A stretch of 63,993 bases of DNA, filler included, from Asterionella formosa (lineage: Eukaryota): the NCBI GenBank assembly GCA_002256025.1. It is 6 parts of 6 records of this genome, joined end to end, with 100 filler letters (N's around TTAATTAATTAA, not from the genome) between each part and the next. Parts side by side here need not be neighbours in the genome. Positions count along the whole stretch, not along the records: positions 10,727 to 21,344 come from NKIB01009303.1; 5 more parts are not named here. One strand, given 5' to 3'. A model generated the notes under the pieces. The model worked only from the letters and a program-made list of their open reading frames with translations. It searched no databases and was not told the DNA's origin. The translations under genes were made by a program, and so were the position numbers. Shown in pieces: positions 4,325 to 53,524 of this stretch (positions within the stretch are counted from its first letter, which is position 1; every line of letters begins with the position of its first letter).

Positions 4325-4530
4325 AACTCTTGTAGCTTTCCGGAAGGTTGTTGATCATGTGTGCCACATAGGCACCAGCCGAAACGGCAGAGCTTGTATT
4401 GCCCAGTCGTTCCCAGATACAATCCAACTCCACATACCAGCTGTCGGGGTTCGCATTTTCCCTTAGAGTGCACTTGTTCCATTGGTGGGACAAGGCAATG
4501 ACAACAGTTCGCCATGTTCCCTAACTCATA
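4325..4530 (-). mobile_element. Isolated Copia gag fragment (frameshifted)
   Basis: Close nucleotide match to 10876-11077 (gag of the Copia element in the next contig), with a 4-bp insertion (GACAACAGTTCGCC vs GACATTCGCC). Confidence 0.85.
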
Positions 4531-5968: not shown

Positions 5969-8900
5969 CTAACAATACCCCTTAGATTGTGTCAGTATGT
6001 GAAGTGCTCTGTGACCTCCTCTTCCGACACAAACATTGGATTTATTATGTTGCAAAGCACATGCAATTGTGACTTTTCCACCAGCTTTGACAATCATCAC
6101 CCTGTTTTTTTCATTATTCTCAGCCAAGCACCTGAGTGCTGCACAACCATATTCTTGGACATTAGCATTGTTTGGATGAGTCCTCATTGCAGACACAATC
6201 CTAGCAATACCTCCTTGATCAGCAATCACCACCTTGTTGTTGTCATTCCCAGCCAACTTCTGAAGTGCTCCACAACCATAGTGTTGGACATAAGCATTGG
6301 ATGAATGATCCTTCATCGCGGACAGAATTGGAGTGATACCGTTTGCGTCAGCAATCGCCTCTGGGTTGATGTCATTCTCAGCCAACTTCTGAAGTGCTGC
6401 ACAACCATATTCTTGGACGTAAGCATTCTTTGGGTGATCCTTCATTGCAGACACAATCCTGGAAATACCTCCTAACTGAGTAATCATCTCCTGGTTGTTG
6501 TCATTATTCACAGCCAAGTTCCCAAGCTCCATGAGCCCATCTACTTGAAAATGAGCATGCTGCTCATTCATTTGCATCTTTGAAACAATTGCAGAAATCC
6601 GAGATGAAATTGAAGTGGCAATAGGCCTTCCTGTTTCAGCATGTGTCACATTGTTGTTGTCATTCCAAGCCAAATTAGCAAGCTTCATGAGACCTTCTTT
6701 TTGAATGTCAGCAATGGGAGACGAAATTGAAGTGGTTGGAATTTCGGTTGGGGTCAACATGCAAAGTGCTCCTTCACCTTTTACTTGCACATTGGCATTG
6801 GATGAGTGATTTCGCATAGCAGACTTAATTGTGTCTATTCCACTAGCATTGGCAATTGCCTCCTTGTTGTTGTCATTATCCTCAGCCAAGTTCCCAAGTG
6901 CTCGACAACCATACTCTTGCACATTAGCAGTGGAGGAATGAGTCTTCATTGCAGACAGAATCATAGTGATACCTCCTTCTTCAGCAATTGTCATCTTGTT
7001 GTTGCAATTACTGTCAGCCAAGTTCACAAGTGCTCGACAACCATACTCTTGAACATTACCAGTGAAAGAATGAGTCTTCATTGCAAACAGAATTGCAGTG
7101 ATACCTTTTGCTTTAGCAATCATCACCTTGTTGTTGTCATTACTGTCAGCCATGTAAGCAAGTGCTGCACAACCATACTCTTGAACATTAGCAGTGCAGG
7201 AATGAGTCTTCATTGCAGACAGAATCGTAGTGATACCTCCTTCTTCAGCAATCGTCACCTTGTTGATGTCATTACTGTCAGCTAAGTAAGCAAGTGCTGC
7301 ACAACCATACTCTTGCACATTACTATTGGATGGATGAGTCTTCATTGCAGACAGAATCGCAGTGATACCTCCTGCAGCATTGATTGTCACACTGAGGCAG
7401 TCATTCATAGCCAACTTCCAAAGTGTTCCACAACCATATTCCTGGACATTATCATTCTTTGGATGCTTCGTCATTGCAGACAGAATCGTGGTGATACCTC
7501 CTCCTGCAACCATTGACACCTTGTTGCTGTCATTCAAAGCCAAGTTGAAAATTACTCCACAACCATAGTGTTGCACATTTGCATTAGATGAATGAGTCTT
7601 CATCGCAGAAAAGATTCTAGCAATACCTCCTTCTTCAGCAATCATCGCCTTGTTGATGTTATTATTTGTAGCCAAGTTCACAAGCTCCATGAGACTTTCT
7701 GTTTGAATGTCAGCATTCTGCTCATTCCTTTGCATCTTTGAAAGAATTGCAGCAATCGAAGGAGAACTTGAGGTGGCAGTGGGCCCTCCTGCTTCCGCAA
7801 TTGTCATATTGATGCTGTCATTCAAAGCGAAGTTTGCAAAAGTGTTAGCATTAGGAGACGAAATTGAAGTGGTCGGAATTTGGTTTGTAGGCAGAGATTG
7901 TGTCAGTATGTGAAGTGCTCTGTGACCTCCTCTTCCGACACAAACATTGGATTTATTATGTTGCAAAGCACATGCAATTGTGACTTTTCCACCAGCTTTG
8001 ACAATCATCACCCTGTTTTTTTCATTATTCTCAGCCAAGCACCTGAGTGCTGCACAACCATATTCTTGGACATTAGCATTGTTTGGATGAGTCCTCATTG
8101 CAGACACAATCCTAGCAATACCTCCTTGATCAGCAATCACCACCTTGTTGTTGTCATTCCCAGCCAACTTCTGAAGTGCTCCACAACCATAGTGTTGGAC
8201 ATTAGCATTGGATGAATGATCCTTCATCGCGGACAGAATTGGAGTGATACCGTTTGCGTCAGCAATCGCCTCTGGGTTGATGTCATTCTCAGCCAAGTTC
8301 TGAAGTGCTGCACAACCATATTCTTGGACGTAAGCATTCTTTGGGTGATCCTTCATTGCAGACACAATCCTGGAAATACCTCCTAACTGAGTAATCATCT
8401 CCTGGTTGTTGTCATTATTCACAGCCAAGTTCCCAAGCTCCATGAGCCCATCTACTTGAAAATGAGCATGCTGCTCATTCATTTGCATCTTTGAAACAAT
8501 TGCAGAAATCCGAGATGAAATTGAAGTGGCAATAGGCCTTCCTGTTTCAGCATGTGTCACATTGTTGTTGTCATTCCAAGCCAAATTAGCAAGCTTCATG
8601 AGACCTTCTTTTTGAATGTCAGCAATGGGAGACGAAATTGAAGTGGTTGGAATTTCGGTTGGGGTCAACATGCAAAGTGCTCCTTCACCTTTTACTTGCA
8701 CATTGGCATTGGATGAGTGATTTCGCATAGCAGACTTAATTGTGTCTATTCCACTAGCATTGGCAATTGCCTCCTTGTTGTTGTCATTATCCTCAGCCAA
8801 GTTCCCAAGTGCTCGACAACCATACTCTTGCACATTAGCAGTGGAGGAATGAGTCTTCATTGCAGACAGAATAATAGTGATACCTCCTTCTTCAGCAATT

Positions 8901-9934
8901 GTCATCTTGTTGTTGCAATTACTGTCAGCCAAGTTCACAAGTGCTCGACAACCATACTCTTGAACATTACCAGTGAAAGAATGAGTCTTCATTGCAAACA
9001 GAATTGCAGTGATACCTTTTGCTTTAGCAATCATCACCTTGTTGTTGTCATTACTGTCAGCCATGTAAGCAAGTGCTGCACAACCATACTCTTGAACATT
9101 AGCAGTGCAGGAATGAGTCTTCATTGCAGACAGAATCGTAGTGATACCTCCTTCTTCAGCAATCGTCACCTTGTAGTTGTCATTACTGTCAGCTAAGTAA
9201 GCAAGTGCTGCACAACCATACTCTTGCACATTACTATTGGATGGATGAGTCTTCATTGCAGACAGAATCGCAGTGATACCTCCTGCAGCATTGATTGTCA
9301 CACTGAGGCAGTCATTCATAGCCAACTTCCAAAGTGTTCCACAACCATATTCCTGGACATTATCATTCTTTGGATGCTTCGTCATTGCAGACAGAATCGT
9401 GGTGATACCTCCTCCTGCAACCATTGACACCTTGTTGCTGTCATTCAAAGCCAAGTTGAAAATTACTCCACAACCATAGTGTTGCACATTTGCATTAGAT
9501 GAATGAGTCTTCATCGCAGAAAAGATTCTAGCAATACCTCCTTCTTCAGCAATCATCGCCTTGTTGATGTTATTATTTGTAGCCAAGTTCACAAGCTCCA
9601 TGAGACTTTCTGTTTGAATGCCAGCATTATGCTCATTCCTTTGCATCTTTGAAAGAATTGCAGCAATCGAAGAAGAACTTGAGGTGGCAGTAGGGCCTTC
9701 ATGATCGCATCTAGGGCAGCTGACTCGCAGAAACCAATTCTTTTTGCGAAGCTGAACGTCTGGATGATGAGGACAGAATCCACTCTTGTGGTACTTTACT
9801 CGTTCGCCATACTCGCTCGTAATTGGAGCATCATGGGTAGGGACGTATGAAACTGCAGGTGAGAGAGTCGCCATGTTTGATTTGTTCTCGTTGATTTGGT
9901 TGCTTGTTTTATCGCATGTGTGATGAAACGCCAT
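5969..9934 (-). CDS. Armadillo-repeat protein with N-terminal Cys/His (Zn-ribbon-like) motif
   Basis: Intronless ORF; first ATG 9934 (alternative 9874; the track's 10006 start is TTG); many 42-43 aa repeats GGITxILSAMKTHxxxxNVQEYGCxALxNLA; N-terminal CPHHPDVQLRKKNWFLRVSCPRC. Confidence 0.85.
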   Translation of the reverse strand: MAFHHTCDKTSNQINENKSNMATLSPAVSYVPTHDAPITSEYGERVKYHKSGFCPHHPDVQLRKKNWFLRVSCPRCDHEGPTATSSSSSIAAILSKMQRNEHNAGIQTESLMELVNLATNNNINKAMIAEEGGIARIFSAMKTHSSNANVQHYGCGVIFNLALNDSNKVSMVAGGGITTILSAMTKHPKNDNVQEYGCGTLWKLAMNDCLSVTINAAGGITAILSAMKTHPSNSNVQEYGCAALAYLADSNDNYKVTIAEEGGITTILSAMKTHSCTANVQEYGCAALAYMADSNDNNKVMIAKAKGITAILFAMKTHSFTGNVQEYGCRALVNLADSNCNNKMTIAEEGGITIILSAMKTHSSTANVQEYGCRALGNLAEDNDNNKEAIANASGIDTIKSAMRNHSSNANVQVKGEGALCMLTPTEIPTTSISSPIADIQKEGLMKLANLAWNDNNNVTHAETGRPIATSISSRISAIVSKMQMNEQHAHFQVDGLMELGNLAVNNDNNQEMITQLGGISRIVSAMKDHPKNAYVQEYGCAALQNLAENDINPEAIADANGITPILSAMKDHSSNANVQHYGCGALQKLAGNDNNKVVIADQGGIARIVSAMRTHPNNANVQEYGCAALRCLAENNEKNRVMIVKAGGKVTIACALQHNKSNVCVGRGGHRALHILTQSLPTNQIPTTSISSPNANTFANFALNDSINMTIAEAGGPTATSSSPSIAAILSKMQRNEQNADIQTESLMELVNLATNNNINKAMIAEEGGIARIFSAMKTHSSNANVQHYGCGVIFNLALNDSNKVSMVAGGGITTILSAMTKHPKNDNVQEYGCGTLWKLAMNDCLSVTINAAGGITAILSAMKTHPSNSNVQEYGCAALAYLADSNDINKVTIAEEGGITTILSAMKTHSCTANVQEYGCAALAYMADSNDNNKVMIAKAKGITAILFAMKTHSFTGNVQEYGCRALVNLADSNCNNKMTIAEEGGITMILSAMKTHSSTANVQEYGCRALGNLAEDNDNNKEAIANASGIDTIKSAMRNHSSNANVQVKGEGALCMLTPTEIPTTSISSPIADIQKEGLMKLANLAWNDNNNVTHAETGRPIATSISSRISAIVSKMQMNEQHAHFQVDGLMELGNLAVNNDNNQEMITQLGGISRIVSAMKDHPKNAYVQEYGCAALQKLAENDINPEAIADANGITPILSAMKDHSSNAYVQHYGCGALQKLAGNDNNKVVIADQGGIARIVSAMRTHPNNANVQEYGCAALRCLAENNEKNRVMIVKAGGKVTIACALQHNKSNVCVGRGGHRALHILTQSKGYC
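5984..9700. repeat. Near-identical direct duplication, period 1911 bp (637 codons): 5984-7789 and 7895-9700
   Basis: AGATTGTGTCAGTATG starts at 5984 and 7895; antisense ORFs repeat at the same offset (6806/8717, 7313/9224). Confidence 0.95.
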
Positions 9935-10626
9935 TTTCGTTGTGGGTCGTGTTTGTAATTCTTCAGTCTCTTCTACCCGGTACCTGTCGTTGAATTCTAC
10001 ATGCAAGCTCCACGTTCATTCAGTCATCATCACAATGCCGGAGTTCCGGGAAAGTCCGAATATTGCGAATATTTGTCCGTATATATATACCGGGTACCGG
10101 TAATCAAACCAGCCAGCCATGTGTGAGCAAACCTTAAAAATGGCTTAACGTGATGTTCATTATGTAGCAGTACGGCGTAGTTGTACCGGTAGGTAACTTT
10201 TGTTCAAATTGTGTACATGCCATCATACTGGGTACCAGGTACCAGTCGCCAGTCACCAGTTACCGGTCGTTAGTTTACATACGTATTCAGTATGCAAGGT
10301 AAAATCACATGATATATTTACTACCGGTAAACAAAAAAAATTTTACTCTGAGGTATCATGATAAAACTTTCACAAAGATCACCACCCCTACCTCCAAACC
10401 AAACCACTAACTGAAGCATGGTCGTATACGTATGAATACGGGGACATATCACGGTCCAAGGTGCCAGGTACAGTATGATGTAGGTAAGATACCGGTAGTC
10501 TACCACTATCTGTTAAATTGCTTATCTATTTATCCATACCACTAAAGGTATATAATATATACATCCCTGCAGCTGACACTGCTACAGTACCGGTACCAGG
10601 TACCAGTTGTGTTGTTACATAGATCA

Positions 10627-10726
10627 NNNNNNNNNNNNNNNNNNNNNNNNNNNNNNNNNNNNNNNNNNNNTTAATTAATTAANNNNNNNNNNNNNNNNNN
10701 NNNNNNNNNNNNNNNNNNNNNNNNNN
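10627..10726. other. Artificial contig linker (N44-TTAATTAATTAA-N44)
   Basis: Identical 100-bp spacer with stop codons in all six frames, repeated five times in the window. Confidence 0.97.
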
Positions 10727-11419
10727 CCCTTTCGTGTAGAAGGCCTGTTCACTCTTGTTCTTGTTAGTCGTTTTGACGTCATCCCGGACATATAGATCGT
10801 AGTAGTCCCGGATGTCTGTCTTAATCTCTTCGACCGTTAGCGTGTTGCGCGCCAGGCCGAACCTTCCTACTACCAAACTCTTGTAGCTTTCAGGTAGGTT
10901 GTTGATCATGTGTGCCACATAGGCACCATCCGAAACGGCGGAGCTCGTATTGCCCAATCGTTCCCGGATTCGATCCAACTCCACATACCAGCTGTCGGGG
11001 TTCTCGTTTTCCCCTAGAGTGCACTTCGTCCATTGGTGGGACAAGGCAATGACATTCGCCATGTTGCCTGACTCATACGTAGAAATGAGCTTGTCCCATG
11101 CTTCTTTAGCATTGCCGTTAGGAAACTCGGCACTTCTTGCATTATTTACGTGTCCGAATGGCCCACTCTGGCATGCCATTATCAGACTTGCGTAAGCAAC
11201 TGTGTTGCTCCTTCGGATGCGTCTCTCGTCAGCATCCGACAACACGATCATATCGCCCTTTAGGTCTTTCTCTCCTCTTGGTAGTTCGTCACCGTTAAGT
11301 ATTCCTTGAAAGTTCTTGTAGCACGCGTATGCGAGAAACTTCGCTTTCCACATGTGCCATTTAGCATCTTGCCCATCGAATGTCGGCAACCTCACTGACG
11401 TGTCTTCGTCACTTCCCAT
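10727..11419 (-). CDS. gag: Copia Gag (UBN2-like), open to contig end
   Basis: LPTFDG...WHMWKAKF, AKEAWDKL, ENPDSWYVELDRIRERL, HMINNLPESY; no stop before the gap. Confidence 0.85.
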
Positions 11420-11463
11420 GGTTCCTGAGTAGCCTGTGGCCTTAAAGTGAACGCTTTAAAGCG

Positions 11464-11842
11464 TGTTGAAAGGTCTCGTACTCCTTCCCGTCTGACGGGT
11501 TCCTCTTACGTAGAACTTACCTGCTATACCACTAGTATTGTTATCTTCTTTCTGCTGCTAGCCTTCGTGCTAGTTTTCGCTATTGACCTTACTCTGTCAA
11601 TTCTCACTGTTTCTTAATTATAAGATTAAACTAAAACTAAGTTTCAATCCCATTCATCACACTTCGAGAACCTGTTCTTCGTGTTCCCTTTTCGTTGATG
11701 TAAACCTTCTTCTGATTGATCTAAGACATCAATCTCGTTAGCAAGCTTCTTGACATGGGAACGCACCATTTGACTCATTGGACTATAGTCGAGTCCACAG
11801 TCCTTGTGACTCATTATAGCCATTGATGCTATATTCTTGACA
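11464..11842 (-). repeat. 5' LTR (379 bp), TGTCAAGAATAT...TTTCAACA
   Basis: TG...CA termini; similarity to 40843-41248 begins at TGTCAAGAATAT and runs through TTTCAACA. Confidence 0.8.
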
Positions 11843-12933
11843 AATATTCGCATGCTTGAAATAATTGCTACTCAATGGAGCATCTCAACCGACTTTGAAC
11901 GCCACTGATTCCATGATGAAAGATCACAGAGACCTGAGCATTTCTATTTAACACCTCATTCTACATTCACATGAGGATTGGCATGCTTGACCCACAAAAT
12001 TCAATTTTACGATCAGCTCAGCATAATCAAAGCAGTCTTGGAGCCAAGATGAAGTGACCCACATAGCTTTGTCTGGCGTTGGATCAACTGCTCATCCTGT
12101 TGTTTTTGATGACAAGCAAGCAGCTCACAAGGACCATAATGATCACCTTTACAATTTTCAACACTCTCCACATGATAGCCTCGACTCCAGCTGACCTAAT
12201 CGAAAAAGCTGACGATGAAATGGGTGGTCGCATCAATCTCAAGCTTGTTGGTCCTCCCTTCCACTATCCGAGTCTTGGTGACACGACCATCAAAACGCTG
12301 GCGCAACTGCTCCTTTCTGACCAACCGAGCGTATACAGAAGTGCAAGTGAACTTGGTGAACTCACGTATCCTCTCGTGGCGAGAACGAGACATGGAGAGA
12401 CCAGTTGTATCAATCCACGGTGTACTTTCTTCATTTTTGTTTATGACTATGCATCCAAACGAGTTCACAAATTCTTGTAATTGGTCTCCACATTGCTTCT
12501 CTTTTTGATGAACTAGCACAAAATGCACACACAAATAGCAAGTACCGGTAGTATCCATACCAGTGCCATGCATTGATAGCTGAGGTAATGAATCGTGATA
12601 CATCGAGAATTGAAAGATGATGCAAGGACAGGTCAAAGGCAAATGCATCAAGCTGAGGTTATGATGCATGTTAAAGTGAGAATGAACGATGATGCTATGA
12701 CAGATCTAAGGGAAATGCATTAAACAGGCAACTTCCGAAACAGTGTTAAGTTATCCTGTGGCACATTTGTGCAATGAAGAACATTCGTTTTTTGTGATTG
12801 CTTCTTAATCATGTGTACATTTTCCCTTCCGTCAACTGATGAGACAGGATAAATCTAGTGAATCAATCACAAGTTAAAAAGTAATATTTGCAACAAGTTT
12901 TTGAAAGAAAATTTCCTCTTTTATGTTGTGCAA

Positions 12934-19944: not shown

Positions 19945-20247
19945 AAAGTTAGTATGTTTTATAGCCCATTCGTACTCCCCTCTTTCAAGGCAGGTATTCA
20001 ATTGTGCAACCTGCCGACAAGACCTGTGCTTCCCTAGTTTTGTTAGCATAGGTGAGTCACCAACCACCTTTCGCAATAGGTGATTGGTCTTAGGCCGCAG
20101 CATTAGGGTTAACTCCGACCGCCTAGGAAGGCGGCACAAGCTGCTTGGGGGGGGGGGGGGGGGCCCCCCCNNNNNNNNNNCCCCGCGCCCCCCCCCCCCC
20201 CGCCCCCCCCCCCCCCCCGCCCCCCCCCCCCCCCCCCCCCCCCCCCG

Positions 20248-21344: not shown

Positions 21345-21444
21345 NNNNNNNNNNNNNNNNNNNNNNNNNNNNNNNNNNNNNNNNNNNNTTAATTAATTAA
21401 NNNNNNNNNNNNNNNNNNNNNNNNNNNNNNNNNNNNNNNNNNNN
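21345..21444. other. Artificial contig linker
   Basis: N44-TTAATTAATTAA-N44. Confidence 0.97.
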
Positions 21445-24999: not shown

Positions 25000-26751
25000 T
25001 TAAGGAATTGCGACTGGCTGTCGCGCGAGCTCTTGCTGAACCTCGTTGGGTATGTCGTTGGCTAATCGGACTACGTACATCGTCATTGGCGGGGTCGTTT
25101 CTTGTGCGTCGTCCATGGACATATCTTTAGGTCGTTCAGACAGCTTTCTAGGTACCACACAACCAGGGTTCTGATCCCCTTGCAAGCTGCCTTCTGCGAT
25201 AGCCTTCGCAGCTAGTTGTCCGCTCAAAATCGCACCTTCCATACTCGCGAGATAACGTTGTTTGGAAAAATCTCCAGCCATAAAAAAATTAGAAATCGGA
25301 GACTTTTGCGAGGGCCTGTATTGTTCGCAGCCAGGTAAGGTTTCATACACTGACGTTGGTGTTCGGATACATGCAAATTTGGTGACCTTGGCCATTGACT
25401 GGTCAGCTCTAATTTCTTCTGGAAAAAGGATCTCAAGTTCATTTAACGTCGCTTGGAGAATCTCATCATCAGACTTTGTCAGCCAACCGGCAGCTGGAGC
25501 AAAAACAAGCTCCAAAATAGAATGGTCATTGGAGGCATATCCCTTACAGGTTTCACTCATGTCTGCGTAGACAGACAACAATTTGCTACGACTGAAGATT
25601 AGATTGTCAACCGTTGAAAGTTTCCGATCAAGCCACAAGTGCAAGTTCATGACTGGAACACCACGTAAATTTACCAAGTCATCAAAGTATGGTACACCTC
25701 TCCATTCTGATGGACATAGCTTCTTGATGGCTTCTACCGGCATGGCATTTACATAAAAATCCGCAGATACAACCTCATTACCCCTTAGCAATAATCCAGC
25801 CACTGACTTGTCGTCATTCACAAGGATCCGAGTAACGGGAGAGTCTGTGCGGACCAAACCCCCACGAGTTTCAATGTATTCCTTGAGTGGTTCGCACAGT
25901 CGTTCCGTGGGCGATCCGTCCAGAAAAGCTATCTTGCTACCATGGGTTTCCTGCAAAAATCGGTTCAGCGCTATCAAAACACATTGCATGGAAAGTTTGT
26001 CAGGATCGATAAAATTCAGGGCCTTACTCATGGCTATAAATACTTCATTTGTCACACGATCTGGAATGCCTCGTGCTCTCATCCATTCTAAGACTGTCAC
26101 GCCTTCCTGGGCTTCAACATAATCTTGCCCAAAGATATATGCAGGAACGAGCCCAATTCCAAGTTTTATTTTTTCCAGCCACGTCAGCAAATCCGTATTG
26201 GAAAGAATAGCAACTCCAGCGTTTAGAGGCGCAGGCAAGGGAGGAAAGTCAAAAGTGGAGAATTCCCTCTTAGAGCCTCCAGGCTTTGCAAACAACATAG
26301 CGTGCTCCTTCCACTGAAGTCGGTCCGATATTCCTAGCTCGTCAAAGAGAGTTATAGCATTAGGATATGCCCCGAAAAAAACATGAAGTCCAGTCTCCAC
26401 GACATGTGTCCCGTCCGCTGACCTCCAAGCAGCTACCTTACCACCTAGCAAGTCACGCGCTTCTAGAACAATAGGGCAGTGACCGGCATCAACAAGGTGC
26501 TTCGCAGTCGACAAGCCGGCGAGGCCACCTCCCATGACAATGACTTTCTTTGGCTGTTTTGGTCGTGGCAGGCCCTTGAGATCAGCTACATTGCGTCTTG
26601 CTTCCACATGAGTGGGTTCGTTGTCAAATGGAGGACGTGCAATATCGACCATTGAAACCGCAGACAGATATGGTCTGCTGAAGGAAGCACACATGAATCC
26701 CCACGAAGCAGTCACCAAAGACAGCGCTAGGATACAGTGAAGCATCATCAT
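25000..26751 (-). CDS. PDS: 15-cis-phytoene desaturase, plastid-targeted
   Basis: GGGLAGL FAD motif, LGGKVAAW, ETGLHVFFGAYPN, FLQETHGSKIAFLDG, YLASMEGAILSG; signal peptide followed by Phe. Confidence 0.95.
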   Translation of the reverse strand: MMMLHCILALSLVTASWGFMCASFSRPYLSAVSMVDIARPPFDNEPTHVEARRNVADLKGLPRPKQPKKVIVMGGGLAGLSTAKHLVDAGHCPIVLEARDLLGGKVAAWRSADGTHVVETGLHVFFGAYPNAITLFDELGISDRLQWKEHAMLFAKPGGSKREFSTFDFPPLPAPLNAGVAILSNTDLLTWLEKIKLGIGLVPAYIFGQDYVEAQEGVTVLEWMRARGIPDRVTNEVFIAMSKALNFIDPDKLSMQCVLIALNRFLQETHGSKIAFLDGSPTERLCEPLKEYIETRGGLVRTDSPVTRILVNDDKSVAGLLLRGNEVVSADFYVNAMPVEAIKKLCPSEWRGVPYFDDLVNLRGVPVMNLHLWLDRKLSTVDNLIFSRSKLLSVYADMSETCKGYASNDHSILELVFAPAAGWLTKSDDEILQATLNELEILFPEEIRADQSMAKVTKFACIRTPTSVYETLPGCEQYRPSQKSPISNFFMAGDFSKQRYLASMEGAILSGQLAAKAIAEGSLQGDQNPGCVVPRKLSERPKDMSMDDAQETTPPMTMYVVRLANDIPNEVQQELARQPVAIP

Positions 26752-32044: not shown

Positions 32045-32144
32045 NNNNNNNNNNNNNNNNNNNNNNNNNNNNNNNNNNNNNNNNNNNNTTAATTAATTAA
32101 NNNNNNNNNNNNNNNNNNNNNNNNNNNNNNNNNNNNNNNNNNNN
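32045..32144. other. Artificial contig linker
   Basis: N44-TTAATTAATTAA-N44. Confidence 0.97.
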
Positions 32145-40842: not shown

Positions 40843-41248
40843 TGTCAAGAATATTAGCCCAAGTCACAAGGATTGTGGACTCGATTGTAATCGAACGAGT
40901 CGAATGTTGCATTGCCACGTCAATCAGCTGCCTAACGAGATCAAAGATTGAAGATTTCTATGGAAATGTTAAGTGGAAACTCGAAGAGAGTCTGAGAACG
41001 ACTTTGCAGAAAGCAAAGATGCATGGAAAGGAAACATTTAGTTTAGCTTATAATTTAATTTGAGTTTTAGATTATCAACCGAGGAAACAGTGTGTTAATT
41101 GACAGGAAGGTCAATTAGTCTATCTAGCAGGAAGGCTAGAAGCAGAGACAAGAGAGAAAGTAAGTGGTACTAGGTAGTACTGCGATCACGTAAGAGTCTA
41201 CGTGAAGAGAGACCCAGCCCGCGGGAAGGAGTACGGACCATTTCAACA
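40843..41248 (+). repeat. 5' LTR (406 bp), TGTCAAGAATAT...TTTCAACA
   Basis: Same termini and internal blocks as the LTR at 11464-11842. Confidence 0.8.
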
Positions 41249-41290
41249 CGCTTTAAAGCGGATAGGTTTGAAAGGGTGGTACTACTCAAG

Positions 41291-42739
41291 ATGGGAATTG
41301 ACGACGACTCGTCAGGAGTGCGGTTGCCAACATTTGATGGTACTGATGCCAAGTGGCATGTTTGGAAAGCAAAGTTTGTGGCCTACCGGTATGCCTGCTA
41401 CAAAGGTTTTGAAGGAATCCTAAATGGAGACGAAGTATCACCAGGGGAGAGAGATTCAGCTGGAGTGAAGATTGTTCCGAGTGACAACGATGAGAAGCGT
41501 GCGAAACGAAATAATACGGTTGCCTTTGCAAGTTTGATTATGGCATGTCAGAGTGGACCATTTGGATAAGTAAATGGTGCCAGAAGTGAAGAGTTTCCCA
41601 ATGGAAATGCGAAGGAAGCGTGGGACAAGTTAGTGTCTACATACAAGTCAAGTAGGCCTAATATGGCAAATGTGATTGCATTGTCAGGTCAATGGACAAA
41701 ATGCACGATTAACGAGAGTGAGAACCCCGACATTTGGTTTGTGGAGTTGGACAGAATTCGAGAACGATTGAGCTGTACAAGCTCCGCAATTTCGGATGGT
41801 GCCTATGTGGCCCATGTTATCAATAACCTACCGGAAGTCTACAAGAGTTTGGTGGTTGGAAAATTTGGTCTCGCAAGCTCCGAGCTCACGATCCAAGAGG
41901 TCAAGTAGAATGTACGCAACTATTACGATTTGTATGTGCGTGAGGAAACCAAGAGGAATAAGAATGGCGAGCAGGCCTTCCTTTCAAAAAGCAAGTTTAA
42001 GGGAGACTGCAGGAAGTGTGGCAAGTATGACCACAAGGCAGTTGATTGCCGAAGCAAGGGCAATACTACAGGAAAGAGAGAATTAACTCCCGAGCAACGA
42101 AATAAGAGAAAGAATGTGAAGTGTTATAATTGCCAGAAGATGGGGCACTATGCCAGTGAGTGCAACAATCAACAAAATGCACCAATCAAACAGAAGGGAG
42201 AAGACGCCAACACCACTACGCAAGGAATGTTCGTGGTGACGTGTATTGAGGCAAGGTACAACGAAGAGGTAAATCATACGTGCGTGCATAAGGACCCTTG
42301 GCTACTAGATAGTGGCGCTACGGTACATATATGCAATGATGAGCGCATCATGGAGGACAAGCGCGCAGTGCGTGAAACTGTTGTTGTGGGAAACGGCGCA
42401 GCAATTGTTGCGACCGTATCAGGCACGGTGACCCTTACGACGACAGACAAAGGAAAAGTGTTGAAACTCACCAATGTGCTCTATGCACCGGAGTTCAAGC
42501 AGAACATTATCAGCATTTCGAGAGTTATTGACAAGGAAAATAAAGTTATGTTTGACGATGATAAGATGACGATCAGAAACAACAACGGATTTTTGATCTG
42601 CAAACGTGATAAAACGAGGACAATTGGTGCAATGTACCATGTGCAAGGAACGCCTATTCTAAAGGAAACGGTGTTGGAGGTTGAACAAGAAAGCGAGAAG
42701 CCAACACAACAATCTATCGACTATGATACTAAAGAAGAC
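41291..42739 (+). pseudogene. Copia gag-pol with two in-frame stops (TAA 41567, TAG 41906)
   Basis: ORFs 41276, 41633 and 41930 are one frame; CRKCGKYDHKAVDC, CYNCQKMGHYASEC, DSGA. Confidence 0.88.
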
Positions 42740-42839
42740 NNNNNNNNNNNNNNNNNNNNNNNNNNNNNNNNNNNNNNNNNNNNTTAATTAATTAANNNNN
42801 NNNNNNNNNNNNNNNNNNNNNNNNNNNNNNNNNNNNNNN
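42740..42839. other. Artificial contig linker
   Basis: N44-TTAATTAATTAA-N44. Confidence 0.97.
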
Positions 42840-43379: not shown

Positions 43380-44063
43380 TACTTATATTGTTACTCTACC
43401 AGGTACCGCACAGTACGTTTGGACATGAACGATTGGTTAATCGTGAATTCTTTTGACTTCCATATCTGCATGTTACGTCATTATCAATCGCCAGGGTTCC
43501 GATAACTGCGATGCCTGGCACCCATCGTAGTCTCTACAAGGCAACCCATAAGAAGTCATTATGCATCGACTGCTTGTTTTCTCTAGATGTCATTTTTTAT
43601 TCACAGTGCTAGTACTGCACTGTACACAGGGATTTCGGACATGCTACCTGGTACGCAATATGTCAACTGGTAAGCAGGCAGGTATGCATAAATGATAGCA
43701 ATCCGTTCGGTCAAGAAGCAAGGATCATACCGTAGTTACCCGTCGAACCTGCATGTATGTGTAATCCGTTAGGGCAAGTACATAAATTCATACATGAATA
43801 AATGCACGGTTCATTACCTTGTGCACCTCGGCCGCTCTGCTTTCCTTGATCACGCACAGCATCTTGCTCCTGCATGTCATGCCGCCCAGTAACCCTAGTA
43901 CAAACAACCCCAGCTTGAAAAAGCAAGGAAATCGATTAAAAAAATATAGAGAGTAAAAATAAAAAATAAAAAATAAAAAATAAACGATTCCCTTCCTCAA
44001 ATGCATCAGGTCCATTCTTAACAATCTGATACCACTAGCTACTCTTACTAAAGACGAGACAAC

Positions 44064-46538
44064 ATGATTGATTATCCAATCGTTGACGATGCTGCAATGG
44101 AGACACTCGCAATGAATGTGGAAGCAACAAATTGCAATCATCATCGTCATCGTCGTTACTCAGAATCAGAACTTTCTGTTTCAACGACTCTCAGTCTCAG
44201 TTTAACCATGACACAGCTGTCAAACCAAACAAGCAGTTCCTCTTCTTCTGGGGATGAGAATCTTTCGAATGGGGAAAATCTCGTTGGTGCAGGGATGAGC
44301 ATTTGTTTTGACGATGAAGAAGTAGAAGAAGGAGGCGCTACTATTCAAGCTGCAAACAACCATGATGATGATGATGACGAAGAAGCGCAACATCAGCACT
44401 ACACTCGCAGTAGTAGTCATAGGACAGTATCACTCAAAGGTGGGAAGGATGAATCAAAAGGAACCTTTGAACACTACGTGGAATATGAAGAACAAATCGA
44501 CCAAAATCAAGCACGACGTAATAGTAGTAAAAACAAGTACGAATGGTCAGCAGCGAAGGCAAGCCTACAAATGGATGTTGTGCATCAGGAAAAACTGGTG
44601 AATTCTTTGAAGCGAGAGAATTCGACATTAATCTTTGCCGAGAATAACACCATACCGAGGGCCATGGAACCAGAACAAAAATTCGAAGGATCCAGAAGTG
44701 CTGTTTCCATATGGGATGACTCTCTCATGGCAGCTCCTCCCCCTCCTCTCCATCGAGGACGAGAAATTTCTGAAATGTCGACTCCTGGCGCTATTGCCGT
44801 TCCTGGATTCCTTGGCCAGGATAACGTCGCGAATGACGACACCACTGTCACTGTCCATCCTGACGAGGATGGCGAACTAGGAGGCCTTCCGACATATCAC
44901 GCAACTCTAGTCCACGATGAAGAAGTTGTCCTTGCCATTAGTGCCATGGATATAACTGAACAAGAATCAAAGTCTAAACGTCGTCAAAGGATTACATGTA
45001 TCGGAGGAGTAACAATAATTGCAATTCTTGTGACTATAATTGTCGCAGTGATGCTTAACCAGGGACAGGATCAGCCACAGTCACACTCACCATCATCTTC
45101 ACCTTCTTCAGGGCCAACCAACATGCTTGTTGGCTTGAATGAAATTGTAGCTCTGGATGGGGGTTTTCCTGCAGAAACGACTGCGCAATACGAAGCATTG
45201 CAATGGTTGTCGGACAATTCAAATTCAGCGGAATACTCAAAGGAAGAGTTGCGCCAGAGATATTCCCTGGCAACACTGCTATACTCCAATCTGAAATACA
45301 CGAACCAAGCTCCTGATTCCTTATCGAATAAATCTCACTGCACATGGTCCGGAATTGAATGTAGAAACGAAAAGGGAGCAGGCAACATGCAAGTGATTGG
45401 GATCCATGGAACACTGTTGAAACCCACAACGGATTCGGTTCTTACGATTCCACCAGAGCTTGCTCTTCTTTCCAACTCACTGCAATATTTAAAATTTCCA
45501 AATACGACTTTGGAGGGAACATTTCCAAGTGAGTTGGGACGTTTGACAGAATTAAAGCTGCTGGAATTTTCAGCTAATTCTGAACCCACTAAAGGACAGT
45601 TGTTTTCCGAAATTGGTCACTTGCATCAACTTGAGCACTTGTCGCTTCCCAAATGTGGCCTCACTGGAGTATTGCCAACAGAGATTGGACTAATGAAAAA
45701 CCTTGTGTTTCTGGATTTGAGTGGCAACAACTTTGCATCAACCATGCCCACACAGATTGGACTACTGACTCAATTGGAACACTTTAATTTACGAGATAAT
45801 CAATTCTACAACGATTTTCCCCCGCATGTGGGGTTTCTCAAGAATCTGACCTATTTCGATATTTCTAATAACCGGATCGCATCTAGAGATTCCAATGGTT
45901 ATCTACCTTTGGAGCTTACTAATCTCACGAAACTCCAATTTCTCGATGTTTCTGGGAATGGTGTTCACGGATTCCAAAATGTTTTTTTCTGTTTCATGGA
46001 TAGTGCCCTATGTGACCTGAAAATGTCATACCCACTGCCAAGCTTTCCACTCCCATCCAACCTTGGACAACTCACTTCACTTACATGGCTTGATCTAAGT
46101 TCCAATGATATTCATGGTGCATTCCCTGCTAGTGCGATTAGATACCTTACAAATTTGGAGCGATTCGACATTCATACTAACAATTTCGCTGGGGGTGTTC
46201 CTTCAGAGTTGGGGTTGCTCACCAAGCTCACTTATGCTGACTTGAACGAAAATTATTTTACGGGTCCACCTCCGGAGGACTTGTCCAAACTCAATCATTT
46301 GAACTTTTTAAATCTTCAATCGAATTACATAAGAGGAGTGATCAATTGCAGCATGTATTCCATTTCCACCATTTGGGTTGACTGTGAATTACTCGATTGC
46401 AGTGGTGATTGCAAGTGCGTCAACAAAAATATGGATTTGGTAGCAGCAACGCTAATTCAATGTCCTGCGGCGGGCTCGAATTTGACCAATGTAACTACAA
46501 TTCACTCCAAACTCGCTCAGAGAACCCTCACTATATAG
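44064..46538 (+). CDS. Single-pass (type II-like) LRR receptor-like protein, diatom family
   Basis: Disordered N-terminus with PGAIAVPG, TM helix, cap QYEALQWL...QRYSLATL...CTWSGIEC, plant-type LRRs (LPTEIGL, LDLSGNNF); no kinase domain. Confidence 0.88.
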   Translation: MIDYPIVDDAAMETLAMNVEATNCNHHRHRRYSESELSVSTTLSLSLTMTQLSNQTSSSSSSGDENLSNGENLVGAGMSICFDDEEVEEGGATIQAANNHDDDDDEEAQHQHYTRSSSHRTVSLKGGKDESKGTFEHYVEYEEQIDQNQARRNSSKNKYEWSAAKASLQMDVVHQEKLVNSLKRENSTLIFAENNTIPRAMEPEQKFEGSRSAVSIWDDSLMAAPPPPLHRGREISEMSTPGAIAVPGFLGQDNVANDDTTVTVHPDEDGELGGLPTYHATLVHDEEVVLAISAMDITEQESKSKRRQRITCIGGVTIIAILVTIIVAVMLNQGQDQPQSHSPSSSPSSGPTNMLVGLNEIVALDGGFPAETTAQYEALQWLSDNSNSAEYSKEELRQRYSLATLLYSNLKYTNQAPDSLSNKSHCTWSGIECRNEKGAGNMQVIGIHGTLLKPTTDSVLTIPPELALLSNSLQYLKFPNTTLEGTFPSELGRLTELKLLEFSANSEPTKGQLFSEIGHLHQLEHLSLPKCGLTGVLPTEIGLMKNLVFLDLSGNNFASTMPTQIGLLTQLEHFNLRDNQFYNDFPPHVGFLKNLTYFDISNNRIASRDSNGYLPLELTNLTKLQFLDVSGNGVHGFQNVFFCFMDSALCDLKMSYPLPSFPLPSNLGQLTSLTWLDLSSNDIHGAFPASAIRYLTNLERFDIHTNNFAGGVPSELGLLTKLTYADLNENYFTGPPPEDLSKLNHLNFLNLQSNYIRGVINCSMYSISTIWVDCELLDCSGDCKCVNKNMDLVAATLIQCPAAGSNLTNVTTIHSKLAQRTLTI

Positions 46539-49023: not shown

Positions 49024-50615
49024 GTTGCTTGTCCTTGCCTGCACATTTGCTGATGCAGGAACACCAATACCGGAACTAGCACTACAATTTCCAAACGTTT
49101 GTTCTGATGTCCCCTATTGTTGGCGATGATGATTGTTTGTCGCTATGATCAATCATGATGTGTCAATTTAGTGAGAATATAGTAAATATATATGTCTTTA
49201 AATATACAGTCAAATAGCTTAGTGCTTTTGTATTTTTCACATGTATCTTTGTTGTTCTTGTTCGTTTGTTGTTGAGTGTTGAGTGTTGTTGGAGGCCGGA
49301 GAGTGAGAGACGAAAAAAAACCGAATTGTTTGTGTGTAATTTTAATTACGGCATGACAAAAATGCCTGCCGTTGTCCCTATACATGTAATTTGTATTGAA
49401 AAAATATTTGGATGATCGATTGCGAGACGACCAATTCGAACCAACTGTACTACAGGTGTACGAACATACTTCTGTAAGTCGACCGAATGTCCGGAGTCGT
49501 GATCGAGCATTGCTGGAGCAATAGCTCAGGTCGGCTTCTTAAGCCGAAGACGCCAGTCGAAATTATGCACATCCAGTGCCCACTTTCTTGTCATACGCTC
49601 GCGAATTTATGGTCATCAGGTCGCAATGATCCCATTGCGGTCCTGACGTTTCTTTGTGGTTCCTCAAACTCGTTTCTTTCTTTTCCATCCCACCCTCCCT
49701 GCAAGTCCGAGTTTTCGAGCCTCAAAGGCGCGACTAGAAATTTAGCCTGCCTTTGATACTGGCGAGTACTAAGCTAAAGCTTCGTTTCTCCCATACTCAG
49801 ATATAGCTTTGTCTACTCTTATTAGGCAATTTCTACTAGTCTAGTACAAATTACCGTACTGCTCTATACTTTTGTCCCGCGTGTACAAGCGTGAGGATTG
49901 AAGACAATGCATGTGAATTCCCATGAATTCTTATGCATGATTAGAATCTGGGACGATCTCATAATGCCAAGGACTGCCTGTGCTTGTGCTGTACACACAA
50001 TAAATAGAATACTTATGCGTTAGGAAAAATTCTCATGGATCGAACATTATTTTTCAATATATATATATATGTACGTCTATCGTCACTTTTCCCGCTTCCA
50101 CGCAATGGAGGTGGCATGGTATGCCTATTTTAAGTATTGCCCAAATTCGCTGCCACAACCAATGAATATCCAATAACAGTGCCAATATGTTCTTGTCTAC
50201 ATATATATTCTTTAACGTAGTAGACTACTGGATAATTAAAGTTGATAGTGTACTACCAGTAGATACTGGGGTACCGGCACCCGTTGTTCGTAGGTTTTCA
50301 AAAAATTTCCCAGGAACGGCGTACTTTTGGCTCAACGGATCAATGATGCAGGGCCAGCGATTTCTTTTCGCTCTTATTGTCTCGCTCGTTTTCTTCTACA
50401 CCAACGACCTGGTGGGGGGGGGGAGGGAATGGACGGCGGAACGGAACCCTCTGGTCCTGCCTGCTGCTGGCTGTCGTCGATGTTTCCCACCAGCAGATTT
50501 GAAAAGCCGGGTTGCGCATTTGGACGAAGCACGGTACTATACATACCGTTCGTCTAAAAGATAATTTCGAATACATATATATATATATGCAAATATATTA
50601 AATATATCGGTAGTA

Positions 50616-53424: not shown

Positions 53425-53524
53425 NNNNNNNNNNNNNNNNNNNNNNNNNNNNNNNNNNNNNNNNNNNNTTAATTAATTAANNNNNNNNNNNNNNNNNNNN
53501 NNNNNNNNNNNNNNNNNNNNNNNN
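53425..53524. other. Artificial contig linker
   Basis: N44-TTAATTAATTAA-N44. Confidence 0.97.

Follow-up and report, generated by a model that had tools for sequence, protein, structure and literature searches.

A perfect palindrome at the primer-binding position of a diatom Copia family, a candidate tRNA-independent start site for reverse transcription

A Ty1/copia retrotransposon family that is represented twice in a 63,993-nucleotide stretch of DNA from the Asterionella formosa assembly GCA_002256025.1 (hereafter, the window) carries a perfect 12-nt palindrome, CGCTTTAAAGCG, directly after its 5' LTR, at the position of the primer-binding site (PBS). Its sequence and pattern of conservation suggest that the palindrome may be a tRNA-independent initiation site for minus-strand synthesis that acts via self-complementarity and that replaced an ancestral anticodon-arm PBS, a reading to which we assign a probability of roughly 0.5. 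The site is a variant of a phenomenon already published for fungal GalEa elements, with a different sequence and in a freshwater diatom host. The novelty raised in the initial annotation is lowered by this fungal precedent, as far as the consulted portions of that report describe it (PMC5445492); no description of a palindromic PBS in diatom Copia was found in the literature consulted, including a term search of PMC2806351 without its supplements.

The window consists of six pieces of about 10.6 kb that are concatenated via N44-TTAATTAATTAA-N44 spacers. Because the pieces end at these joins, copies A and B of the element are both cut and lack a 3' LTR in the window, and self-comparison of the window revealed none. 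Copy A lies on the minus strand and is truncated by the join at 10727, and copy B lies on the plus strand and is truncated by the join at about 42739-42740 (Table 1). The coding region of copy B contains two in-frame stops, at 41567-41569 and 41906-41908.

Table 1. Positions of element features in the window.
Feature	Position	Strand	Basis or remark
5' LTR, copy A, 379 bp, TGTCAAG...TTTCAACA on the element strand	11464..11842	-	flank breakpoints, L001 junction, similarity to copy B
12-nt perfect palindrome CGCTTTAAAGCG, copy A	11452..11463	-	adjoins mapped LTR end
Degenerate palindrome copy CACTTTAAGGCC, copy A, 9/12 identical	11438..11449	-	can pair with palindrome over 9 bp
CCCGTCAGACGGG hairpin motif in U5, copy A, followed by AAGGAGTACG	11487..11499	-	
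gag, copy A, 231 aa, open, cut at 10727	10727..11419	-	Pfam Retrotran_gag_2; 99% identical to L001 gag
5' LTR, copy B, 406 bp	40843..41248	+	TGTCAAGAATAT at 40843; end set by homology with copy A
12-nt perfect palindrome CGCTTTAAAGCG, copy B	41249..41260	+	adjoins LTR end
Degenerate palindrome copy GGTTTGAAAGGG, copy B, 8/12 identical	41265..41276	+	alternative pairings predicted
CCCAGCCCGCGGG motif in U5, copy B, followed by AAGGAGTACG	41213..41225	+	
gag, zinc knuckles and protease barrel, copy B, cut at join	41291..42739	+	domain search

The location of the LTR end, which is not provable from the window alone, was confirmed by outside contigs. Public contigs aligned to copy A switch to unrelated flanks exactly at 11464 and 11842 in 4/4 runs, with 20, 7, 13, and 6 breakpoint records at 11464 and 40, 11, 3, and 3 at 11842. 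The consensus flank at 11842 in run X1 is the polypurine tract of the full-length relative L001, where the tract, GAGGAGGA, is followed by TGTCAAG and the junction of tract and TGTCAAGAATAT is visible. Similarity between copies A and B likewise starts at TGTCAAGAATAT, and their LTRs are 62% identical in a global alignment. The LTR ends of copy A and L001 together show direct LTRs of the TG...CA type with a polypurine tract before the 3' LTR. The ends of the copy A LTR are fixed at 11464 and 11842, and the palindrome adjoins the former. Since the LTR ends at 11464, minus-strand DNA must begin at the base beside the palindrome.

Placement of the family within Ty1/copia (Pseudoviridae) follows from its domain order, in which integrase precedes reverse transcriptase (RT)/RNase H. 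A protein from L001 (P0003) contains Retrotran_gag_2 (56-203), zf-CCHC (273-290), Pol_BBD (337-416), rve (572-668), and RVT_2 (982-1196) domains, along with the motifs KARLVV, DVEAAF, YVDD, DSPDC, DSDWA, and ADILTK. Two CCHC knuckles are present in the palindrome-bearing family. The closest named relative is a protein of the diatom Fistulifera solaris (36% identity over 1502 aligned positions). Together with the diatom host, this relative lends indirect support to a possible place among the CoDi1-7 groups of diatom Copia (Maumus et al. 2009). The initial annotation had assigned the element to Copia and the host to the diatoms; the order of gag, zinc knuckle, protease, integrase, and RT agrees with the former, and a neighbouring phytoene desaturase, with named matches that are diatoms in 4/4 cases, agrees with the latter.

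The palindrome occurs exactly twice in the window, as compared to 0.05 occurrences expected by chance, and two or more occurrences were obtained in 0/100 shuffles. Both occurrences directly follow the LTR end, as first reported, and both are immediately preceded on the element strand by TTTCAACA. The palindrome extends to 14 nt in copy A (ACGCTTTAAAGCGT, 11451-11464) and stays at 12 nt in copy B. An identical 12-mer is present in 6/6 copies of the family, namely copies A and B and L001-L004, which come from four other assemblies. The longest exact block that is common to the LTR-plus-leader sequences of copies A and B, TTTCAACACGCTTTAAAGCG, comprises 20 nt, and the next longest comprises 14 nt.

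A more distant relative, L020, shares 41.8% identity with the family in pol (886 aa) and 27.6% in gag (290 aa), and its LTR is essentially unalignable (36-44% identity in global alignments). Nevertheless, L020 carries TTTCAACA followed by CGTTTTAAAACG, such that 18 of the 20 positions are kept. The two differences, C3>T and G10>A, are mirror partners; because of this, L020 retains a 12-nt palindrome (14 nt with its flanks), with one pair changed on both sides and five pairs invariant. Given two substitutions, only 1/33 of second hits restores a perfect palindrome by arithmetic, and this covariation represents a single event in a single relative. A shuffle control reached the observed value in 97/500 shuffles and is uninformative because it included only five rows. 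The 14-nt form that incorporates the final A of the LTR is found in copy A, L001, and L020, while B-type copies have 12 nt adjoining the LTR. From the LTR end to the gag ATG, nothing other than the palindrome is conserved across the three lineages (A, B, and L020). Covariation had been put forward in the initial annotation as a way to check the palindrome, and L020 changes only as a compensating pair, as self-pairing predicts.

Twelve-nt palindromes are not rare, with 43 in the window including five spacers and AT-repeat runs, and copies A and B are related; it might therefore be asked whether the palindrome arose by chance and was inherited by common descent without function. We consider this very improbable, given that the site and the LTR end are kept in L020 while the rest of its LTR is at 36-44% identity and that its only two changes compensate each other. 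A symmetric site at the DNA level that is bound by a dimeric protein of the host or the element, with a regulatory role and none in priming, would account for the perfect inverted repeat and for the same change in both half-sites of L020, as co-evolution with a homodimer would require. Such a site would leave the element with no primer site and would give no reason for the exact abutment to the LTR in three lineages and in an unrelated fungal clade, and we regard this explanation as quite improbable.

Public contigs were screened for additional copies of the conserved block. The exact 20-mer had one match among genome contigs (L019), which lies in a bacterial coding region with no LTR similarity and was taken as a chance match rather than a family member, and no matches among viral contigs. 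A degenerate 20-mer (N at positions 3 and 10) identified 37 loci in genome contigs. Among the 36 that were screened (L019 left out), a Copia relative is encoded by only one (L054), which shares its contig with L020; all others are bacterial background, in which 11 of the 16 letter combinations are present. The same query identified three loci in viral contigs, none with a Copia match. Protein-anchored scans detected no relatives in viral contigs and, in genome contigs, recovered L020 together with two loci, L066 and L067, that lack the region upstream of gag. A further locus, L026, is a different Copia for which the LTR end is not definable, and additional relatives at 40-49% RT identity exist.

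No TGG-type site follows the palindrome in copy A or copy B. Distant Copia loci, in contrast to the palindrome-bearing family, have GGTTATGAGCCC-type sites at the LTR end in all six cases with definable LTR ends, and the palindrome is therefore a replacement. We take these GGTTATGAGCCC-type sites to be of the initiator-tRNA anticodon-arm type. By sequence reasoning, no register of the 12-mer combines U33, a standard sense anticodon, and paired positions 31-39 and 30-40; where U33 and a standard sense anticodon do coincide, in a single register, two stem pairs would be mismatched. The palindrome thus does not appear to be a half-tRNA PBS of the Hemivirus type, and the initial annotation's statements that a TGG-type PBS is missing and that an anticodon arm cannot be fitted both hold. 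No tRNA genes were detected in the window. In run X9, a loose-end consensus before 11464 (...ACCACCA) was considered as a tRNA 3' end joined to cDNA and was rejected: agreement was 0.48, a similar pattern was present in the DNA run X3, and the upstream sequence is A-rich and without a T-arm. The contigs contained no strand switch and no junction of primer and cDNA, features that this kind of data could hardly reveal.

These observations bear on whether the palindrome might be an ordinary PBS for a host RNA, such as an unusual or organellar tRNA, a class II variable arm, or a small hairpin RNA, with the palindrome mirroring the stem-loop of the primer. Internal segments of several tRNAs are used by Copia elements, as described in the consulted parts of two reports (PMC10886601; PMC1181622), and an even palindrome would fit a class II variable arm with a 4-bp stem and a 4-nt loop. 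A sharp 12-nt edge of conservation would be expected if the site were copied from a fixed primer, and mirror-image changes would likewise follow from covariation within the stem of a host RNA. Against this, no anticodon-arm register fits, a T loop would call for C56 at a place where the palindrome carries U, a D loop would need GG, which the palindrome does not contain, and the site does not start with TGG and hence does not match a tRNA 3' end. Moreover, both variants have a self-complementary centre, a property that a loop does not require, and the fungal precedent is likewise without a tRNA match in the portions of the report consulted (PMC5445492). Collectively, these considerations make a host-RNA primer unlikely.

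Priming from within the element, as in Tf1, was evaluated by searching for repeats of the palindrome. Neither the LTR nor the leader of L001, L002, or L003 contains another match of at least 7 nt, in line with the earlier observation that the LTR holds no complement; elsewhere in the three near-complete relatives there is no repeat of at least 7 nt except for lone TTTAAAG 7-mers in the pol of two. The site is not complementary to the 5' end of the transcript, and Tf1-type priming is excluded because the element is without a second palindrome copy. Across the whole RNA, the best pairing partner for the palindrome is the palindrome itself (-21 kcal/mol, versus -13.6 kcal/mol for the next site).

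Computed energies of the homoduplex (-20.0, -19.8, and -15.2 kcal/mol) can be compared to those of the hairpin (-4.2, -4.1, and -1.8 kcal/mol). The self-complementary centre in both variants favours a duplex, because a small hairpin does not need such a centre. Local folds near the site are unexceptional (z of -1.4 to -1.8), the stability of 96-nt stretches at the site does not exceed that of shuffles (z = 0.11 and -0.15), and folding of the R-U5 region gave z = -1.08 for copy A and -2.35 for copy B. A scan of 11350-11900 against Rfam returned only SNORD105 (E = 0.16, far under the gathering score) and no ribozyme or known RNA.

The initial annotation described sequences that diverge immediately after the palindrome and, upstream, CCC...GGG motifs followed by AAGGAGTACG in both LTRs. 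The motifs were found in both U5 regions, and the divergence is not complete, as a degenerate second copy of the palindrome lies 2-4 nt downstream in copies A and B (Table 1). In copy A, the predicted duplex between palindrome and leader has an energy of -10.3 kcal/mol, a value matched by 1.8% of 2000 dinucleotide shuffles (shuffle fraction 0.018-0.019 in A). Two alternative pairings are predicted for the degenerate copy in B, one with the palindrome, of 8 bp and including A.G and G.G mismatches, and one with TTTCAA at the end of U5; their shuffle fractions are 0.086 and 0.080 in the window and 0.03-0.05 in other B-type copies. Palindrome-leader pairing is weak in B (0.029-0.086, with a mismatch at nt 7) and is absent in L020 (0.857). 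Conversely, pairing between U5 and leader has shuffle fractions of 0.026-0.080 in B and 0.029 in L020 and is missing in A (0.68-0.83). No downstream pairing scheme is common to the three lineages.

A stable predicted homoduplex would also be expected of a signal for RNA dimerisation or packaging only, with priming by something without a conserved sequence, such as a protein-held primer. U5-leader pairing in B and L020 would put the palindrome atop a stem, as in a dimer initiation hairpin, and palindromes near the Ty1 5' region are listed in PMC3592414. However, known signals of this kind come in addition to a PBS and do not replace it, as also argued in the consulted portions of the GalEa report (PMC5445492), and nothing else is conserved from the LTR end to the gag ATG in the three lineages. 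In addition, the position of the LTR end requires the 3' end of the primer to lie on the palindrome's first base. A role in dimerisation or packaging alone is accordingly improbable in our assessment.

Returning to initiation through self-complementarity, we infer each of the priming steps, namely pairing in trans, the cut, and the enzyme responsible. A duplex of 12-14 bp would form between the palindromes of two RNAs of the element, or between that of one such RNA and that of a fragment containing the same site. One strand would then be cut endonucleolytically where the palindrome ends on its 3' side, with the RNase H of the element as the probable enzyme, by analogy with Tf1. The resulting 3'-OH, base-paired with the first nucleotide that follows U5, could be extended by reverse transcriptase through U5 and R. 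The degenerate copy and U5-leader pairing might modulate access to the site, acting as a switch between monomer hairpin and dimer. A more specific version, in which the palindrome is both a pairing and a cutting site, edge cuts free either a self-complementary RNA primer or a 5' fragment ending in the palindrome, and the capped R-U5 leftover constitutes the high-depth RNA over 11455-11622, is doubtful.

The family is abundant and transcribed. In run X1, the LTR has a summed contig depth that exceeds the depth of flanking unique DNA by a factor of hundreds, and the family was found in 20 public runs from 13 studies. An RNA contig (record 17) spans 10727-11483, indicating that the palindrome is transcribed in one piece with gag. 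Two lake metatranscriptomes from a single study have summed depths of ~1e5-7e5 over 11455-11622, of ~16-520 over the palindrome-proximal leader and gag, and of ~80-2100 over U3; contig depths cannot rank gene parts, and this profile is a lead rather than evidence. As the family is abundant, transcribed through the site, and present in many public runs, the primer could be mapped directly in existing or easily obtained material.

The start of reverse transcription in LTR elements has two accepted answers, a tRNA or a Tf1-type fold-back of the RNA 5' end. Half-tRNA priming is characteristic of Hemivirus-type Copia elements (copia, Ty5, 1731, and Osser). These belong to the same superfamily as the diatom family, and their primer site also adjoins the LTR; they differ in that the 12-mer described here has no anticodon-arm register and in that its changes preserve the palindrome. 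Tf1, Tf2, and their relatives (Ty3/gypsy) use no tRNA, and their primer derives from the element's own RNA, freed when an RNA duplex is cut at its edge. The mechanism proposed here would resemble theirs in being tRNA-free, in using a primer from the element's own RNA, and in the cut at the duplex edge. Unlike in Tf1, there is no second copy of at least 7 nt in the LTR, meaning that the partner can only be the palindrome itself. In the consulted portions of the GalEa report, the Tf1 PBS is described as non-palindromic and complementary to the start of the transcript (PMC5445492). The retroviral dimer initiation site and Ty1 PAL share with the diatom site a self-complementary 5' leader sequence able to join two genomic RNAs, and a U5-leader stem could present the palindrome in B and L020; those signals accompany a tRNA PBS, whereas here the palindrome occupies the PBS position and there is no PBS.

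The closest parallel is the palindromic 'Conserved Hairpin Site' at the PBS position of fungal GalEa Copia, here summarized from the consulted portions of the report (Donnart 2017; PMC5445492). GalEa sites read CTGATCAGT or CTAATTAGT, variants separated by a compensating pair (G3/C6 to A3/T6), and the final A of the LTR forms part of the palindrome; a second sequence, CHSeq2, lies 2-41 nt downstream and is inverse-complementary to the first with one fixed mismatch at nt 7 (PMC5445492). Both systems lack a tRNA-type PBS and have a short palindrome directly after the 5' LTR that includes the final LTR A (here in copy A, L001, and L020), a compensating pair (here C3/G10 to T3/A10), LTRs of the form TGT...CA, and a single ORF. 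A possible counterpart of CHSeq2 is the imperfect inverted copy that lies 2-4 nt downstream in copies A and B, where the mismatch in copy B falls at nt 7 of the palindrome, as in GalEa. In contrast, the palindrome is 12-14 nt here and 9-10 nt in GalEa, the sequences are unrelated, the host is a diatom rather than a filamentous ascomycete, and the downstream copy is absent in L020 and hence not a feature of all lineages. The motifs DVEAAF/DSPDC/DSDWA match neither DVKAAY/TRPDI/SDAS of metazoan GalEa nor DITQAY/CQPEA/TDGS of fungal GalEa (consulted portions of PMC5445492); judged by these signature motifs alone, the diatom family would fall outside the GalEa clade. The GalEa site had suggested a third answer, which has stayed without an explanation and limited to a single clade. 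In the diatom lineage, the corresponding position holds another palindrome, with a compensatory change that preserves it and with relatives that have a tRNA-type site; this indicates a recurring, selected solution rather than a fungal oddity. If dimer pairing and cutting do take place, a third general route into reverse transcription would be common to diatom Copia elements and the GalEa elements of fungi.

The 12-mer CGCTTTAAAGCG occurs exactly twice in the window (0.05 matches expected; two matches reached in none of 100 shuffles of the window), once in each of two cut Copia elements, denoted copies A and B. Read on the element strand, both are arranged as GGGAAGGAGTACG, 5 nt, TTTCAACA, the palindrome, a leader of 30-32 nt and the gag ATG, and their open frames encode a Copia gag, zinc knuckles and a protease barrel. 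The placement of the palindrome directly after the LTR end in both elements, as described in the initial annotation, was confirmed. Self-comparison of the window identified no 3' LTR. The window comprises six pieces of ~10.6 kb each joined by spacers, and the spacers at the joins therefore truncate both elements, A at 10727 and B at 42739; these ends are join artefacts rather than biology. ORF lists of the window read through the N runs. A 206-nt piece of copy A's gag (90% identical to 10876-11077) lies isolated in a different piece of the window.

Positions of features along the joined stretch
Feature	Position	Strand	Remark
LTR, copy A	11464-11842	minus	379 bp, TGT...CA; contig breakpoints and L001 junction
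Palindrome, copy A	11452-11463		after TTTCAACA
gag ATG, copy A	11419	minus
LTR, copy B	40843-41248	plus	by homology
Palindrome, copy B	41249-41260		after TTTCAACA
gag ATG, copy B	41291	plus
Hairpins upstream of U5	11560-11610; 41095-41140		both subfamilies
Isolated gag piece	4325-4530
Armadillo-repeat gene	5969-10015	minus	1348 codons stop to stop
Phytoene desaturase gene	25000-26751
Leucine-rich-repeat gene	44052-46538	plus
Leucine-rich-repeat gene	46936-49113	minus
Spacers N44-TTAATTAATTAA-N44	10627-10726, 21345-21444, 32045-32144, 42740-42839, 53425-53524
N10	20171-20180

To map the LTR ends, contigs from DNA runs X1 and X3 and from RNA runs X6 and X9, the latter two belonging to one study, were aligned to 10727-12400 at 80% likeness; the stretch was found in 20 public runs from 13 studies of freshwater, lake, estuary or algal samples, eight of the runs being RNA. 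Contig records turn into mutually unlike sequence (agreement 0.41-0.48) exactly before 11464 (20, 7, 13 and 6 records in the four runs), and a second pile-up of records leaves the alignment behind 11842 (40, 11, 3 and 3 records). When reverse-complemented, the X1 consensus behind 11842 gives the pol end and the GAGGAGGA polypurine tract, which also precede TGTCAAGAATAT in the near-complete relative L001. Together, the breakpoints and the L001 junction delimit the LTR of copy A, and the palindrome thus begins at the very next base. The initial annotation had inferred this LTR end only from the similarity of copies A and B; the breakpoints now establish it and refute a true LTR end elsewhere with a normal tRNA primer-binding site (PBS).

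The polyprotein frame enters the 3' LTR for ~195 nt (L001 4700-4896; window 11647-11842, minus), and thereby includes the polypurine tract and the initial TGTCAAG of the LTR as codons (..EEDVKNIA..). A conserved REDVK terminates the alignment of 12 relatives, and, judging from sequence, a coding LTR start seems common to the whole clade. Just upstream of U5, two small hairpins are kept in both subfamilies (arms ATTGAC...GTCAAT and CTAGC...GCTAG), with purine-rich loops that differ between subfamilies; L001 has lost the 5' arm of the second through a 12-nt deletion.

A gag-anchored metagenome scan returned 18 loci, four close (64-99% identity) and 14 distant. The identical 12-mer directly follows TTTCAACA in 4/4 close loci and in 0/14 distant loci, and it is therefore present in 6/6 family copies (A, B and L001-L004), among which there are only two subfamilies. 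Copies A and B are 62% identical in their LTRs and 76% identical in gag. L001, a contig collapsed LTR to LTR, encodes an intact 1547-aa polyprotein (P0003) with the domain order gag, knuckle, protease, integrase and RT, which is the Copia order and identifies the element as Copia. A database comparison of the RT/RNase H part of P0003 gave 845 relatives; beyond the family itself the closest reach 40-49% identity, and among named organisms the diatom Fistulifera solaris supplies the closest relative (36% across 1502 aligned positions). That the host is a diatom is indicated by its phytoene desaturase gene, for which 4/4 organism-named matches are diatoms (69-72% identity). Summed contig depth in X1, which is not a copy number, was 1.0-1.7 million over the LTR, 0.5-1.0 million over gag and ~840-2800 over the flank, and points to a very abundant family.

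Other features of the window include an armadillo-repeat gene with an internal 1.8-kb tandem duplication (5984-7791 versus 7895-9703, 99.4% identity) and older ~130-nt repeats. Two leucine-rich-repeat genes lie tail to tail and are 82% identical over 1.5 kb; the initial annotation may have mistaken this pair for the rest of the element. GGTACC-centred 12-nt palindromes at 1136, 13972, 23298, 40676 and near 10595 (CCTGGTACCAGG twice, ACTGGTACCAGT, TTTGGTACCAAA) may be part of a short dispersed repeat.

An RNA contig (930 nt, 2 mismatches) spans gag through the palindrome to 11483, and the site is thus transcribed in one piece with gag. In the two lake metatranscriptomes, summed contig depth was 1e5-7e5 over 11455-11622, the R-U5 of copy A (starting ~30 nt past a TATA-like TATAATTAAG and reaching the LTR end), versus ~16-520 over leader and gag and ~80-2100 over U3 of the same LTR; contig depth cannot rank parts of a gene, and this contrast is a lead, not evidence. 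The DNA runs have no such contrast between R-U5 and its neighbours, and genomic DNA contamination was rejected as the source because U3 has the same copy number. The lead points to a short, highly abundant LTR RNA whose end lies close to the junction of LTR and palindrome; promoter-proximal 3'-end formation could confine it to the LTR, or it could be a stable 5' fragment remaining after cleavage at that junction.

LTR ends could be fixed in 6/14 distant loci, from LTR pairs in five and by inspection in L006. A GGTTATGAGCCC-type sequence stands at the LTR end in each of the six (L006, L007, L009, L010, L013 and L016); we take it to be the initiator-tRNA anticodon-arm site known from Ty5 and copia, and these loci form a handy control set for the normal state of the PBS position. 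Passages in PMC1181622 and PMC10886601 describe priming by a tRNA anticodon-arm segment for Copia.

A diverged relative, L020, was identified on a contig in a bacterial bin contaminated with algal DNA; it contains pol, one collapsed LTR, leader and gag, circularly permuted. Protein identity to P0003 is 41.8% for pol (886 aa) and 27.6% for gag (290 aa), and the L020 LTR is near random relative to those of A and B (36-44% aligned identity). Its LTR end ATTTCAACA is followed by CGTTTTAAAACG, with 18/20 positions as in the family. The palindrome changes, C->T at position 3 and G->A at position 10, fall on pairing partners, and this C:G to U:A exchange keeps both the 12-nt palindrome and a 14-nt one with the flanking A and T. 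By count, only 1 of 33 possible second substitutions restores a perfect palindrome; a covariation shuffle control, with the observed value reached in 97/500, is uninformative at only five rows. A degenerate pattern search able to pick up uncompensated variants returned only bacterial background besides L020's contig. The comparison of family members proposed in the initial annotation yielded conservation in the six copies and compensation in L020. Diatom-type Copia contigs occur inside public bacterial genome bins (L020, which is G001:C176, L023-L026, L066 and L067), labeled Janthinobacterium and Bacteroidota, and one Copia protein carries the bacterial annotation 'Ty1/Copia family ribonuclease HI'.

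Several primer types were considered. A tRNA 3' end would need a site beginning with TGG, and the palindrome does not begin so, as the initial annotation had stated. Its failure to fit an anticodon arm was reproduced on the palindrome sequence alone in four half-tRNA registers: 27-38 is without U33; 28-39 gives anticodon AAA; 30-41 gives UUA, which would read stop codon UAA, with two mismatched stem pairs; and 29-40, the sole register with U33 and a standard sense anticodon (UAA), leaves 31-39 and 30-40 mismatched in both variants. A T loop would require C56 and a D loop GG, and the palindrome fits neither. Tf1-type self-priming requires a complement at the transcript 5' end, and no second palindrome copy of at least 7 nt is present in the LTR or leader of L001-L003. 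Rfam returned no known RNA family at the palindrome. A host RNA, such as a non-standard host primer, is a possible alternative and among the main rivals.

The best pairing partner of the palindrome in the whole element RNA is the palindrome itself. Copies A and B have a degenerate second copy downstream in the same register (9/12 and 8/12 identical). Pairing of this second copy with the palindrome spans 9 bp in A (shuffle fractions 0.018 and 0.019) and, interrupted by A.G and G.G mismatches, 8 bp in B (0.029-0.086); for 51-53-nt stretches the resulting hairpins come out as both the minimum-energy and the centroid fold (z = -1.8 and -1.4). L020 has no palindrome-to-leader pairing (0.857), and its U5 end UAUUUCAA pairs instead with the leader UUGAAGUA (0.029), a pairing formable in B (0.026-0.080) and not in A (0.68-0.83). 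The palindrome is all that these three lineages share. Its self-complementarity extends through the center, which a small hairpin would not need, and the predicted homoduplex is -15 to -20 kcal/mol versus -2 to -4 for the hairpins.

A pure dimerization signal, also among the main rivals, would draw on the same homoduplex. However, a primer's 3' end must sit at the base after the LTR, and self-pairing is the only conserved, selected property of the sequence found there; together these favor initiation without a tRNA. Beyond the observed position, conservation, compensation and transcription of the palindrome, such initiation would proceed by pairing of two palindromes in trans, after which cleavage of one of them at its 3' edge would supply a 3'-OH; by analogy with Tf1, the cutting enzyme may be the element's RNase H. 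We consider this reading to have about an even chance of being correct.

Literature searches on diatom, CoDi, Copia and PBS turned up no paper that describes a primer site for diatom Copia, and a term search of the main text of Maumus et al. (2009; PMC2806351) revealed no discussion of it; among the papers searched, the phrase 'Conserved Hairpin Site' was found beyond GalEa only in work on bivalve TRIMs. That name was given to the site of fungal GalEa Copia elements, which, in the relevant sections of Donnart et al. (2017; PMC5445492), have no PBS and carry CTGATCAGT or CTAATTAGT directly after the LTR. There, the final A of the LTR forms part of the palindrome, and 2-41 nt further on lies an imperfect inverse copy that is always mismatched at position 7. 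The two main variants differ by a compensating pair, and the authors could fit no known priming model. As far as those sections describe GalEa, the diatom site resembles it in position and compensating variation, in including the LTR's final A (A and L020), and in having a nearby imperfect copy (A and B), with the mismatch in B also at position 7. Length, sequence and host are different, and the second copy is not constant in the diatom lineage; by motif comparison only, P0003 falls outside both GalEa sets described, fungal and metazoan. Collectively, a palindrome of this kind is already known from fungal GalEa, where its mechanism is unsolved, and the diatom site is a variant new to the literature searched.
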